A stretch of DNA of 64,000 nucleotides from Escherichia coli (GTDB lineage Bacteria; Pseudomonadota; Gammaproteobacteria; Enterobacterales; Enterobacteriaceae), in the NCBI RefSeq assembly GCF_003334765.1, contig NZ_QOWT01000002.1, one strand, 5' to 3'. The stretch's first letter is position 1; each line of letters opens with the position of its first letter. The notes below the pieces were generated by a model. The model did no database searches. It saw nothing but the letters and a program-made list of their open reading frames with translations, and was not told the origin of the DNA. This document shows, in pieces, positions 40,017 through 44,168 of the stretch. A program made the position numbers and the translations under genes.

Positions 40017-40898
40017 TTAACGCGGCACATTTGCGGGATCGCAATAGTCCAGAAAGCGCCGTAGCGCGTTGGAAAGGTGTTTTTGCCGATGATGTATACG
40101 CCACAACGTACGCATCAGGCGCGGCAGAGGGACCGCAACTTCACTTAATGTGCCTGCCTGCAATTGATCTTCAATCACACGTCGCGACAGGCAACTAATT
40201 CCCAACCCATGACGCACCGCATGTTTGATTGCCTCGGAGTTACCTAATTCCATCGCCATCTCAAACTTCGGTAAATGTGACAGCAACAGATAATCGACAA
40301 TCTCCCGCGTGCCGGAACCGCGTTCACGCAGGATCCACGGCGCAGCGGCCAGCTGTTCTAAGGTGACCGGACCACGGGCCAACGGCGAAGTCGGCGCGGC
40401 GAAAACCACCAGCTCGTCTTCCAGCCACGGTTCAGAAATGATTTCAGTGCTGTGGCACGGTCCTTCAATAAAGCCAATATCAACGCGGAAATCCAGCACC
40501 GCTTGCATCACGTCCTGGCTATTCCCAACGCTAAGTTCAATCGGCAACTGCGGATAATCATGGCGATAACGGGCGATAACTGCAGGCAGAATGTAGTTAC
40601 CGATGGTACTACTGGCATAGATACGAATCGCGCCGTTGTCTTCGCGAAACAGTTGTTCGATTTCAACCGCCTGTTCAAGCAATGCCAACGCACGCGGATA
40701 GAGCAGCCGCCCGTGTTCATTAACAACCAGTCTTTTCCCCACGCGATCAAACAGTTGCACGCCAAGCTGCCCTTCCAGGTCGGTCAAGGCTGCGCTCACT
40801 GCTGATTGCGACAACGCCAGCATCACCGACGCCTGGGTGGTTGATCCACTTTTCAATACTTCTGCAAAAACTTCCAACTGCCGGAGGGTGATGTGCAT
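40017..40898 (-). CDS. yeiE: LysR-family transcriptional regulator YeiE
   Basis: N-terminal LTTR HTH; divergent from yeiH. Confidence 0.85.
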
Positions 40899-40996
40899 AG
40901 TCGCTTACCACTTATAAAGATTAATTATAAATATATAATCAATTTTATTTTTAAACCAGTTAGTCGTAACCTTATGCCCGGTTAAAGGAGAGGGTT

Positions 40997-42046
40997 ATGA
41001 CGAATATCACCTTACAGAAACAACATCGTACACTGTGGCATTTTATTCCGGGGTTAGCCCTGAGTGCAGTTATCACCGGGGTCGCCCTGTGGGGTGGTTC
41101 CATTCCCGCGGTTGCGGGTGCCGGGTTTAGTGCCCTCACCCTCGCAATCTTGTTGGGGATGGTTTTAGGCAACACCATCTATCCGCACATCTGGAAAAGC
41201 TGTGACGGTGGTGTGCTGTTTGCCAAGCAATATTTATTACGTCTGGGTATCATTCTTTATGGCTTCCGTCTGACGTTCTCGCAAATTGCCGATGTCGGTA
41301 TCAGTGGGATCATCATTGACGTGTTGACGCTGTCCAGTACCTTCCTGCTGGCTTGCTTCCTGGGGCAGAAAGTGTTTGGTCTGGATAAGCACACCAGCTG
41401 GTTGATCGGTGCCGGTAGCAGTATCTGTGGTGCTGCCGCGGTACTGGCGACTGAGCCGGTAGTGAAAGCGGAAGCCAGTAAAGTAACCGTGGCTGTTGCA
41501 ACCGTTGTTATCTTCGGGACCGTCGCGATTTTCCTCTACCCGGCGATATATCCGCTGATGTCTCAATGGTTTAGTCCGGAAACTTTCGGTATCTACATTG
41601 GTTCTACTGTGCACGAAGTGGCGCAGGTGGTGGCGGCAGGTCATGCCATCAGCCCGGATGCGGAAAACGCAGCAGTTATTTCCAAAATGCTGCGCGTGAT
41701 GATGCTGGCTCCGTTCCTCATCCTGCTGGCGGCGCGTGTTAAACAGCTGTCTGGGGCGAACAGCGGCGAGAAAAGCAAAATCACTATTCCGTGGTTTGCC
41801 ATCTTGTTCATCGTAGTTGCCATCTTTAACTCGTTCCACCTGTTACCGCAGAGCGTGGTGAACATGCTGGTAACGCTGGATACCTTCCTGCTGGCAATGG
41901 CGATGGCGGCGCTGGGTCTGACCACTCACGTCAGCGCGCTGAAAAAAGCTGGGGCGAAACCTCTGCTGATGGCACTGGTACTGTTTGCCTGGCTGATTGT
42001 TGGTGGTGGTGCGATTAACTATGTGATTCAAAGCGTCATCGCATAA
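40997..42046 (+). CDS. yeiH: UPF0324 inner membrane protein YeiH
   Basis: 349 aa polytopic membrane ORF. Confidence 0.85.
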
Positions 42047-42119
42047 ACCACTACATCTTGCTCCTGTTAACCCGCTATCATTACCGTTTTCCTCCAGCGG
42101 GTTTAACAGGAGTCCTCGC

Positions 42120-42977
42120 ATGAAATACATTGGAGCGCACGTTAGTGCTGCTGGCGGTCTGGCAAATGCCGCAATTCGCGCCGCCGAAATCGACGCAACC
42201 GCGTTTGCCTTGTTCACCAAAAACCAACGTCAGTGGCGTGCCGCACCGCTCACGACGCAAACCATCGATGAATTCAAAGCCGCCTGTGAAAAATATCACT
42301 ACACATCGGCGCAAATTCTTCCCCACGACAGTTATCTGATTAACCTCGGACATCCGGTCACTGAAGCTCTGGAAAAATCGCGCGATGCCTTTATAGATGA
42401 AATGCAGCGTTGCGAACAGCTGGGGCTTTCTTTGCTCAACTTCCACCCTGGCAGCCATCTGATGCAGATTTCAGAAGAGGATTGCCTTGCGCGTATTGCC
42501 GAATCCATCAACATTGCGCTGGATAAAACTCAAGGTGTGACAGCGGTGATAGAAAACACCGCCGGTCAGGGCAGTAACTTAGGGTTTAAATTCGAACATC
42601 TCGCGGCGATTATCGACGGCGTGGAAGATAAATCCCGCGTCGGCGTCTGCATTGATACCTGCCATGCTTTCGCTGCCGGGTATGATTTGCGTACTCCAGC
42701 CGAATGCGAGAAAACATTCGCGGATTTTGCCCGTACTGTCGGCTTTAAGTATCTGCGCGGGATGCACCTTAACGATGCGAAAAGCACCTTTGGCAGCCGC
42801 GTTGACCGCCATCATAGCCTCGGTGAAGGCAATATCGGTCATGATGCGTTCCGCTGGATCATGCAGGACGACCGTTTCGACGGCATTCCGCTGATCCTCG
42901 AAACCATCAACCCGGATATCTGGGCAGAAGAGATCGCCTGGCTGAAAGCGCAACAAACTGAAAAAGCGGTAGCCTGA
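42120..42977 (+). CDS. nfo: Endonuclease IV (AP endonuclease)
   Basis: 285 aa; recognised sequence. Confidence 0.95.
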
Positions 42978-42979
42978 AG

Positions 42980-44068
42980 ATGAATAACCGGGAAAAGGAG
43001 ATCCTTGCAATTTTACGGCGTAACCCGCTGATTCAGCAGAACGAAATTGCGGACATGCTGCAAATCAGCCGTTCGCGCGTTGCGGCGCATATTATGGATT
43101 TAATGCGCAAAGGCCGGATTAAAGGCAAAGGTTACATTCTCACCGAGCAGGAATACTGCGTAGTGGTGGGGACAATCAATATGGATATTCGCGGGATGGC
43201 GGATATCCGTTACCCGCAATCGGCTTCTCATCCCGGTACAATTCATTGCTCAGCGGGCGGCGTGGGACGCAACATCGCCCACAATCTGGCGCTGTTAGGC
43301 CGTGACGTCCATTTGCTTTCAGTGATTGGCGATGACTTTTATGGCGAAATGCTCCTGGAAGAAACGCGCCGTGCCGGCGTGAATGTCTCCGGCTGCGTTC
43401 GTTTGCATGGTCAAAGCACATCGACGTATCTGGCAATTGCCAATCGAGACGATCAAACCGTGCTGGCGATTAACGATACCCATCTGCTGGAACAGTTGAC
43501 ACCGCAACTACTGAACGGGTCGCGCGATTTACTTCGTCATGCGGGCGTGGTACTGGCTGATTGCAACCTGACAGCCGAGGCGCTGGAATGGGTCTTTACC
43601 CTCGCTGATGAAATCCCGGTGTTTGTCGATACCGTTTCAGAATTCAAAGCGGGCAAAATCAAACACTGGCTGGTGCATATTCACACCCTGAAACCCACTT
43701 TACCGGAGCTGGAAATTTTATGGGGACAGGCGATCACCAGCGATGCTGACCGTAATACCGCAGTGAATGCATTGCATCAGCAAGGTGTTCAGCAACTGTT
43801 TGTTTATTTGCCCGATGAGTCAGTTTATTGCAGCGAAAAGGATGGAGAACAATTTTTGCTGACCGCGCCAGCGCATACGACAGTAGACAGTTTTGGTGCT
43901 GACGATGGTTTTATGGCGGGCCTGGTATATAGCTTTCTTGAAGGATACAGTTTCCGCGACAGCGCCCGTTTTGCGGTAGCCTGCGCGGCAATTTCGCGCG
44001 CCAGCGGCAGCTTAAACAACCCTACCCTGTCTGCCGATAACGCGCTTTCATTAGTGCCAATGGTGTAA
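42980..44068 (+). CDS. yeiI: PfkB-family sugar/nucleoside kinase with N-terminal HTH, YeiI
   Basis: HTH N-terminus plus ribokinase-like domain (GGVGRNIA, GADD); starts 2 nt after nfo stop. Confidence 0.85.
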   Translation: MNNREKEILAILRRNPLIQQNEIADMLQISRSRVAAHIMDLMRKGRIKGKGYILTEQEYCVVVGTINMDIRGMADIRYPQSASHPGTIHCSAGGVGRNIAHNLALLGRDVHLLSVIGDDFYGEMLLEETRRAGVNVSGCVRLHGQSTSTYLAIANRDDQTVLAINDTHLLEQLTPQLLNGSRDLLRHAGVVLADCNLTAEALEWVFTLADEIPVFVDTVSEFKAGKIKHWLVHIHTLKPTLPELEILWGQAITSDADRNTAVNALHQQGVQQLFVYLPDESVYCSEKDGEQFLLTAPAHTTVDSFGADDGFMAGLVYSFLEGYSFRDSARFAVACAAISRASGSLNNPTLSADNALSLVPMV

Positions 44069-44072
44069 CAAT

Positions 44073-44168
44073 GTTGCCGGATGCGACGCTTAACGCGTCT
44101 TATCCGGCCTACAAATCAGGCAATTTCAGCAAGTAAATGTAGGCCTGATAAGCTTGCGCATCAGGCAA
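44073..44168. repeat. REP pair (convergent)
   Basis: GCCGGATGCGACGC..TATCCGGCCTAC and an inverted partial copy between yeiI and nupX. Confidence 0.8.

Follow-up and report, generated by a model that had tools for sequence, protein, structure and literature searches.

In the 64,000-nt stretch of Escherichia coli DNA analysed here (contig NZ_QOWT01000002.1 of assembly GCF_003334765.1; hereafter, the window), the gene yeiH is followed on the same strand by nfo, the gene for endonuclease IV. The spacer between the two genes is 73 nt long (TAA-accactacatctt-GCTCCTGTTAACCCGCT-atcattaccgttttcctcc-AGCGGGTTTAACAGGAGT-cctcgc-ATG) and contains a long hairpin, which is the subject of this work. An earlier reading of the sequence alone (the original prediction) described an inverted repeat that would occlude the ribosome-binding site (RBS) of nfo, and proposed that it serves for translational control of nfo or as a processing site. 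The features of the locus are listed in Table 1; a window coordinate is converted to the coordinate of MG1655 (NC_000913.3) by adding 2,208,720.

The hairpin region has the sequence gCTCCTGTTAACCCGCT-atcattaccgttttcctcc-AGCGGGTTTAACAGGAGt. RNAfold gives a stem of 17 pairs, including a terminal G.U, in which 42060-42076 is paired with 42096-42101 and 42103-42113, and in which U42102 is bulged. The folding that the original prediction called for therefore yields a stable stem that buries the Shine-Dalgarno (SD) sequence of nfo, and most of the predicted features are recovered: the long inverted repeat itself, the AGGAG in its 3' arm 7 nt before the ATG, and the lack of a U-tract that distinguishes it from a classical terminator, since there is no T-run 3' of the stem and the terminator scan makes no call. 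The loop had been given as 21 nt and is corrected here to 19 nt. The base of the stem is located 13 nt 3' of the yeiH stop codon TAA, and the 5' arm includes an anti-SD sequence, CTCC, at 42061-42064.

The folding energy of the yeiH-nfo spacer is -25.8 kcal/mol. For an 89-nt segment, the minimum free energy (MFE) is -28.7 kcal/mol, as compared with -14.2 +/- 2.6 kcal/mol in 200 dinucleotide shuffles (z = -5.6), none of which is as good (0/200); the opposite strand also folds (z = -3.6). Inverted repeats of at least 13 nt within 40 nt occur only 16 times in the window, and several of these are REP elements. The hairpin is more than a chance pairing, and the structure is real. When a 96-nt query is compared with complete E. 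coli genomes, exactly one match per genome is found (5426/5426), always between yeiH and nfo, and the identity is at least 99% in 5257 of them. Dispersed palindromic repeats (REP/BIME, ERIC and similar) are ruled out by this occurrence of one copy per genome. A scan of 41500-42700 against Rfam (E up to 10) gives no family match, the sole hit, Sphinx_2, being meaningless. As a separate observation, one E. coli ST80 genome (L082, NZ_CP031215.1) carries a 2-nt deletion (TG) in the 5' arm, corresponding to window 42065-42066, that would leave the nfo promoter with a spacer of 15 bp instead of 17 bp; the deletion may be a genuine variant or an assembly error.

Table 1. Features of the yeiE-yeiH-nfo-yeiI locus in window coordinates (CDS, coding sequence; ORF, open reading frame; TSS, transcription start site)
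Feature	Position	Strand	Remarks
Hairpin 5' arm GCTCCTGTTAACCCGCT	42060-42076	+	nfo promoter spacer, from the -35 position to the -10 hexamer
Hairpin loop, 19 nt	42077-42095	+	houses most of the -10 hexamer and the nfo transcription start
Hairpin 3' arm AGCGGGTTTAACAGGAGT	42096-42113	+	nfo mRNA +11 to +28; U42102 bulged
nfo Shine-Dalgarno AGGAG	42108-42112	+	wholly within the 3' arm; 42113-42119 (7 nt) precede the ATG at 42120
nfo promoter -10 hexamer TATCAT	42076-42081	+	end of the 5' arm nearest the loop and start of the loop
nfo-yeiI transcription start (G of taccGtttt)	42086	+	NC_000913.3 2,250,806; 34-nt leader
Marbox/soxbox-like site ATCGCATAAACCACTACATC	42038-42057	+	overlaps the yeiH stop codon and the -35 position; 18 bp 5' of the -10 hexamer
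nfo (endonuclease IV) CDS	42120-42977	+	ORF list and RefSeq MG1655 annotation
yeiH CDS	40997-42046	+	ORF list and RefSeq MG1655 annotation; TAA at 42044-42046
yeiH transcription start	40979	+	SMRT-Cappable-seq operon 'b2158', TSS 2,249,699
yeiE	40017-40898	-	
yeiI	42980-44068		

The nfo promoter and start site are found inside this hairpin. Four bases of the -10 hexamer (T42076, A42077, T42078 and T42081) are invariant in the spacers of 31 Enterobacteriaceae, which gives the signature TATnnT. According to SMRT-Cappable-seq (Yan et al. 2018, PMC6131387), the nfo-yeiI transcript (b2159|b2160) extends from a TSS at 2,250,806 to a transcription termination site (TTS) at 2,252,832, and is supported by 145 reads from M9 and 123 from rich medium. 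The same source gives yeiH (b2158) as a unit of its own, with a TSS at 2,249,699 and without a stated TTS, and no yeiH-nfo unit (b2158|b2159) is present among the operon-table rows listed. In addition, Kim et al. (2012) report the yeiH TSS at 2,247,722 (NC_000913.2), 17 nt 5' of the yeiH start, and the Cappable-seq 2016 supplement has no nfo or yeiH entry. Because the TSS at 42086 lies in the loop, the mRNA of nfo itself lacks the 5' arm. Going by the positions of the -10 hexamer and the TSS, the promoter spacer corresponds to the 5' arm, the -10 hexamer and +1 fall in the loop, and +11 to +28 of the leader make up the 3' arm. A promoter scan of 41800-42060 finds no promoter-like site 5' of the 5' arm, and the only promoter-like hit of the scan begins in the 3' arm and is directed into nfo.

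The marbox/soxbox-like 20-mer has one mismatch to AYnGCAYnnWnnRYYAAAYn, a loose consensus that has 7 matches in the window against 2.8 expected and is weak alone; the part of the site that lies 3' of the yeiH stop codon is conserved across many genera. Both this consensus and the spacing rule for the class II promoters of SoxS, MarA and Rob (fumC, micF, sodA and nfo) are said to go back to Martin et al. in 1999. As far as the sequence alone can tell, the class II spacing (a marbox over the -35 position and 18-19 bp to the -10 hexamer) is found here at 18 bp, together with a TATnnT -10 and a poor -35, and the position of the site fits the class II arrangement attributed to nfo. We take the nfo promoter to be of the marbox type and presumably activated by SoxS, MarA or Rob. 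Note that this likeness concerns the nested promoter and not the hairpin; as far as we have traced them, descriptions of class II promoters make no mention of a promoter spacer that is complementary to the SD region. The spacer of E. albertii (L002) differs from that of E. coli only at the mapped TSS base (L002 2467, equivalent to window 42086: G to A, still a purine) and in the segment between SD and AUG (42114-42118, 4 changes), and neither the arms nor the soxbox are changed.

Predicted SD accessibility depends on where the RNA begins. In the transcript of nfo itself, the leader from 42086 shows no unusual degree of structure (z = -0.47), the probability of being unpaired, P(unpaired), is 0.2-0.9 for the SD, and opening of 42105-42125 costs 6.3 kcal/mol. 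In RNA from yeiH, folded in 321-nt and 521-nt contexts, the hairpin is both the MFE and the ensemble structure, P(unpaired) of the SD is 0-0.003, and opening of the same region costs 13.6-14.5 kcal/mol, so that the predicted gap in RBS opening cost between read-through and own transcript is 7-8 kcal/mol. Both arms are present only in RNA arriving from yeiH. The proposal that nfo translation is controlled by the structure holds in so far as the SD is buried when the hairpin forms; it fails for the mRNA of nfo, which starts at 42086 without the 5' arm. As modelled, SD occlusion can only take place on RNA reading in from yeiH.

For comparative analysis, we used 80 Enterobacterales loci that were fetched with the Nfo protein and in most of which yeiH is the upstream neighbour; Salmonella, Klebsiella and Cronobacter are missing from this set. 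Conservation is expressed as the majority-base frequency over 31 Enterobacteriaceae species. All of these (31/31) have a compact spacer of 64-106 nt with one dominant hairpin around the -10 hexamer, and in none of the 31 is a separate terminator found in the yeiH-nfo spacer. The inner 5' arm (42071-42075) has a frequency of 0.97 and the inner 3' arm 0.83, the outer arms 0.70 (5') and 0.84 (3'), the -10 hexamer 0.90 and the SD 0.86. The rest of the loop has 0.53, the segment between SD and AUG 0.46 and the linker 42058-42059 0.44; within the loop, TT at 42088-42089 is conserved and the remainder outside the -10 hexamer poorly so. Conservation this high is unusual for a promoter spacer.

Several lineage-specific changes bear on the pairing itself. 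In Shimwellia, an extra A in the 5' arm removes the bulge and, together with a double change from U:A to C:G, produces a perfect 15-bp stem. A pair changes from C:G to G:C in ENT03, and in Bisph1 and Kosakonia U:A changes to A:U and A:U to G:U or G:C. Moreover, the stem is extended into the -10 hexamer in three separate lineages, each with a lineage-specific sequence on the unconstrained side: by 4 bp in Enterobacter sp. R1 (chance ~0.008), by 4 bp in Cedecea/Ag1 (chance ~0.008) and by 7 bp in Citrobacter/Kluyvera (chance ~3e-4). Judging from these changes and the three extensions, the pairing itself looks to be under selection.

The SD is outside the stem in Cedecea, and AGGAG is absent altogether in Citrobacter and Kluyvera. 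In the aligned spacers, the trait shared by all genera is the presence, directly after yeiH, of a hairpin around the nfo -10 hexamer, and not the masking of the SD. In the Citrobacter and Kluyvera loci without AGGAG (L004, L006, L012 and L014), the terminator-like stem ends in GGCGGGTTTAATTT directly 5' of the nfo ATG, and nfo seems to rely there on an A/U-rich leader instead of an SD. Phytobacter massiliensis (L011, 1800-1860) has an insertion of about 30 nt in the loop with a strong internal stem of its own; its loop is 49 nt long and its spacer folds with -43.3 kcal/mol, with both arms and the -10 hexamer retained. An older SD pairing in Serratia and Yersinia, between the -35 region and the SD/AUG region, had been suggested by eye and was dropped after a duplex-vs-shuffle test, which gives nothing consistent outside the Enterobacteriaceae (mostly p > 0.1). 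This test under-scores the Enterobacter group, because the segment compared lacked part of their 5' arm.

The relation of the hairpin to transcription terminators differs among genera. The E. coli form resembles intrinsic terminators in its GC-rich inner stem (CCCGC/GCGGG), followed by UUU, and in its location, where a yeiH terminator is expected; it is unlike them in that its loop is longer than their about 3-8 nt and in that it has three U only, which are paired in the lower stem. The tail is CCUCGCAUG after the full stem and UUUAACAG after the inner stem, neither of which has the at least 5 U in 8 nt of a U-tract. In contrast, the three extended-stem versions (Enterobacter sp. R1, Cedecea/Ag1 and Citrobacter/Kluyvera) have loops of 9-15 nt and U-rich tails (TTTTG or TTTAATTT); the loops of the Citrobacter and Cedecea versions measure 9-13 nt, and 9 nt is the length in the Citrobacter orthologues. 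By their short loops and U-rich tails, these versions look like genuine intrinsic terminators.

More distant genera have canonical terminators at this place. In Serratia, Yersinia nurmii, Edwardsiella and Providencia, a GC stem and T-run follow yeiH, and the nfo promoter (-10 CATAAT) is 3' of the terminator. In Edwardsiella, the terminator is CACCCTGTTAACC-tat-GGTTAGCAGGGTG-TTTTT, located at about 2401-2445 in L061 and about 2390-2435 in L074 (E. ictaluri and E. hoshinae), and the 10-mer CCTGTTAACC occurs both in it and in the E. coli 5' arm (window 42063-42072). The sequence CTGTTAAC is strongly enriched just 3' of yeiH as compared with the rest of the loci, and is also seen after the yeiH stop codon in Pectobacterium (L035 and L043). 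These similarities suggest that a yeiH terminator of the ordinary kind was the ancestor of the E. coli hairpin. In Pectobacterium betavasculorum and two Yersinia species (L038, L043 and L048, ~60-130 nt 5' of the nfo ATG), an insertion (…GCAGCCAACGCACATGCAACTTGAAGTATGAC…) lies between yeiH and the nfo promoter, and yeiH has been moved 255-402 nt away; we take this insertion to resemble an ERIC/IRU repeat.

The hairpin can also be compared with the 3' ends of Rho-terminated E. coli mRNAs, whose signature, as given by Dar and Sorek (2018, PMC6061677), is a stable stem-loop without a U-tract shortly after the stop codon, with a Rho utilization (rut) site downstream. The stem-loop at yeiH is stable (-25.8 kcal/mol), begins 13 nt after the TAA and has no U-tract. 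A C-rich, G-poor rut region would be expected directly after such a stem-loop; here, C exceeds G (skew of -0.16 to -0.33) only from ~42160 to 42380, in the first third of nfo and at least 50 nt downstream, and such skew is common in coding DNA. At most, this stretch is suggestive of a site where Rho might load onto read-through RNA that is not translated. Unlike the stem-loops described there, the one at yeiH has an unusually long loop that houses a promoter -10 hexamer and TSS.

The analysis establishes the structure and how well it is conserved, places the -10 hexamer and TSS within it, and predicts that the SD is less accessible in one RNA than in the other; termination or 3'-end formation, translational silencing and an involvement of Rho are inferred. 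In our judgement, the balance tips slightly in favour of a terminator-derived 3' stem-loop of yeiH that is placed around the nfo core promoter and by which the nfo SD would, in addition, be hidden in read-through RNA. The inverted repeat would act as RNA, and solely on transcripts entering from yeiH: RNA from the nfo promoter, without the 5' arm, would be freely translated, and RNA from the yeiH promoter, with both arms, would form a stem-loop of about -26 kcal/mol. One job of this structure would be to form the 3' end of the yeiH transcript, by terminating transcription intrinsically but weakly, by protecting from exonucleases an end that Rho has generated, or by both. The other job would be performed on read-through RNA, in which the anti-SD CUCC of the 5' arm would lock AGGAG so that no Nfo is made, and the untranslated RNA would be exposed to Rho within nfo. 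The 13 nt between the stop codon and the stem should be enough to keep terminating yeiH ribosomes from melting it, as estimated from the typical size of the ribosome footprint. The net effect would be that nfo expression is insulated from transcription of yeiH, which is YeiE-controlled, and that Nfo is left to its SoxS-type promoter. A bolder form of this proposal, which is conceivable but which we hold to be rather doubtful, is a three-in-one insulator: the ancestral yeiH terminator would have been opened in Enterobacteriaceae with a SoxS-type promoter firing from its loop, so that a single 54-bp sequence would provide yeiH with its 3' end and nfo with its core promoter, and would also silence yeiH read-through RNA by an anti-SD lock, licensing its termination by Rho.

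Several results weigh against this proposal. For the covariation analysis, we built a covariance model and re-aligned the 31 species with it; the raw MAFFT alignment mis-registers the Enterobacter arms. Covariation is not significant in the resulting alignment, where 81.8% of cells are paired as against 80.7% in shuffles (34/500) and double changes are found at 3 pairs only (208/500 shuffles); judged by this test alone, the arms may be conserved for reasons other than pairing. Note that the test is powerless because both arms are nearly invariant. The excess of G.U cells over A.C cells (38 vs 21) lends no more than mild support to an RNA of the + strand. As an intrinsic terminator, the E. coli hairpin is poor: its loop is 19 nt long, the UUU is followed by AACAGG, and the scan does not call it. 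No measured 3' end was found at the hairpin, and the Term-seq supplements of Adams et al. 2021 have no entry for yeiH or nfo, possibly due to poor expression of yeiH. The mapped nfo TSS is unusually close to the -10 hexamer (4 nt 3' of it) and comes from one dataset obtained without SoxS induction, and no nfo TSS is called in Kim et al. 2012, though the yeiH TSS is present there. Finally, the SD lock on nfo may seldom be needed, the read-through RNA being hypothetical.

One alternative is that the hairpin is an evolutionary relic, the remnant of an old yeiH terminator overgrown by the nfo promoter, in which the arms are kept as promoter spacer and as leader with SD, and the pairing has no function. 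The covariation result, no higher than in shuffles, the 10-mer common to the 5' arm and the Edwardsiella terminator, the erosion of outer-stem pairing in several genera (70.6% of cells paired) and the 2-nt deletion in the ST80 genome are all in agreement with such decay. However, AACCCGC is conserved at 0.97 although promoter spacers normally vary freely, the indel and base changes in Shimwellia, ENT03 and Kosakonia/Bisph1 are compensatory, and the three stem extensions are independent. Moreover, as the 31 compact spacers have no separate terminator, yeiH would be left without a 3' structure if the hairpin were a relic. We therefore consider this explanation unlikely. A role at the DNA level, in which the arms would form a bipartite operator for some dimeric regulator, or a part of the promoter that responds to supercoiling or extrudes as a cruciform, would account for the way in which the arms bracket the promoter core exactly (the spacer and +11 to +28), for their high conservation, almost unchanged as a protein site would be, and for a GTTAAC-like mini-palindrome in each of them. 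To our knowledge, the only regulators known for nfo are the marbox regulators. We regard such a role as quite improbable: about 36 bp separate the centres of the half-sites and the spacing differs from genus to genus (loops of 9 to 49 nt), which is unfavourable for a fixed dimer, the 19-nt loop makes cruciform extrusion unlikely, G.U exceeds A.C, and the extensions toward the -10 hexamer differ in sequence by lineage, which suits pairing better than recognition of a fixed motif.

The explanation that remains follows the original prediction: the hairpin would be part of the leader of a functional nfo mRNA and would adjust its translation, for example through melting, binding of a protein or small RNA, or temperature, or else it would be a processing site splitting a common yeiH-nfo transcript. 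A 17-bp stem may conceivably be a target of RNase III, and the SD is wholly in the 3' arm and inaccessible once the stem forms. In addition, an RpoD holoenzyme peak without assigned hexamers is reported in the yeiH-nfo spacer (PMC3946193), so that extra starts are conceivable. Against these points, the sole mapped nfo TSS is in the loop, in agreement with the invariant -10 hexamer, the scan of 41800-42060 offers no promoter 5' of the 5' arm, the full-length-read rows listed include no yeiH-nfo transcript, and Rfam gives no match. Citrobacter, Kluyvera and Cedecea keep the hairpin with the SD outside it or with AGGAG absent, and therefore SD control is not its universal function. The element is also unlike a riboswitch, a thermometer or a translational operator in that the complete structure is not contained within the mRNA of nfo itself, the 5' arm being upstream of 42086. 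Taken together, these considerations make this explanation very improbable.

For the proposed terminator-derived stem-loop with SD masking, the closest likeness is to the fold-back inhibition of read-through transcripts that Davis, Simons and Kleckner reportedly described in 1985 for IS10/Tn10, and that is said to act similarly in IS50. In these elements, the 3' arm of an inverted repeat covers the region of translation start and the element's own promoter starts between the arms, so that RNA from outside has both arms and stays silent. Likewise, the 3' arm of the nfo hairpin covers the SD (AGGAG), with P(unpaired) close to 0 in read-through RNA; the nfo TSS (42086) is between the arms, and the mRNA that starts there is without the 5' arm; and co-oriented transcription can enter from upstream, since yeiH is on the same strand, has its TSS at 40979 and ends 13 nt before the stem. 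Unlike in IS10, the gene concerned is a chromosomal DNA-repair gene and not a transposase, the silencing is predicted here from thermodynamics, transcription from outside comes from yeiH, a neighbour that does not change, and the stem also seems to be the 3' stem-loop of that neighbour.

Two further observations concern the downstream part of the nfo-yeiI unit. In Kim et al. (2012), yeiI is assigned a TSS of low count (2 reads) at NC_000913.2 2,249,464, which is equivalent to window ~42722 and lies inside the nfo CDS, 258 nt 5' of the yeiI start; SMRT-Cappable-seq instead gives co-transcription of nfo and yeiI. The published 3' end of the nfo-yeiI transcript, 2,252,832, corresponds to window 44112, at the first arm of a REP-like inverted repeat (CTTATCCGGCCTACA / TGTAGGCCTGATAAG) that lies at 44099-44152 between the convergent genes yeiI and nupX.

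The hairpin should not be annotated as a leader structure of nfo mRNA. If the proposal is true, an nfo fusion that includes sequence 5' of 42060 and is driven by a vector promoter would be translationally masked. Textbooks count nfo among the genes of the SoxRS oxidative-stress regulon, and its tight dependence on SoxS is usually put down to the promoter alone; part of this dependence would then come from an RNA device that blocks the production of Nfo by transcription from the neighbouring yeiH. The locus would be a chromosomal case of the trick by which insertion sequences guard against outside promoters, and would show that a promoter can be nested in the loop of a terminator-like hairpin. 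If the bolder, three-in-one form is true, Nfo output would be strictly dependent on its own promoter, and if the arrangement is general, a promoter in the loop of a terminator would be an overlooked way to pack and insulate adjacent co-oriented genes.

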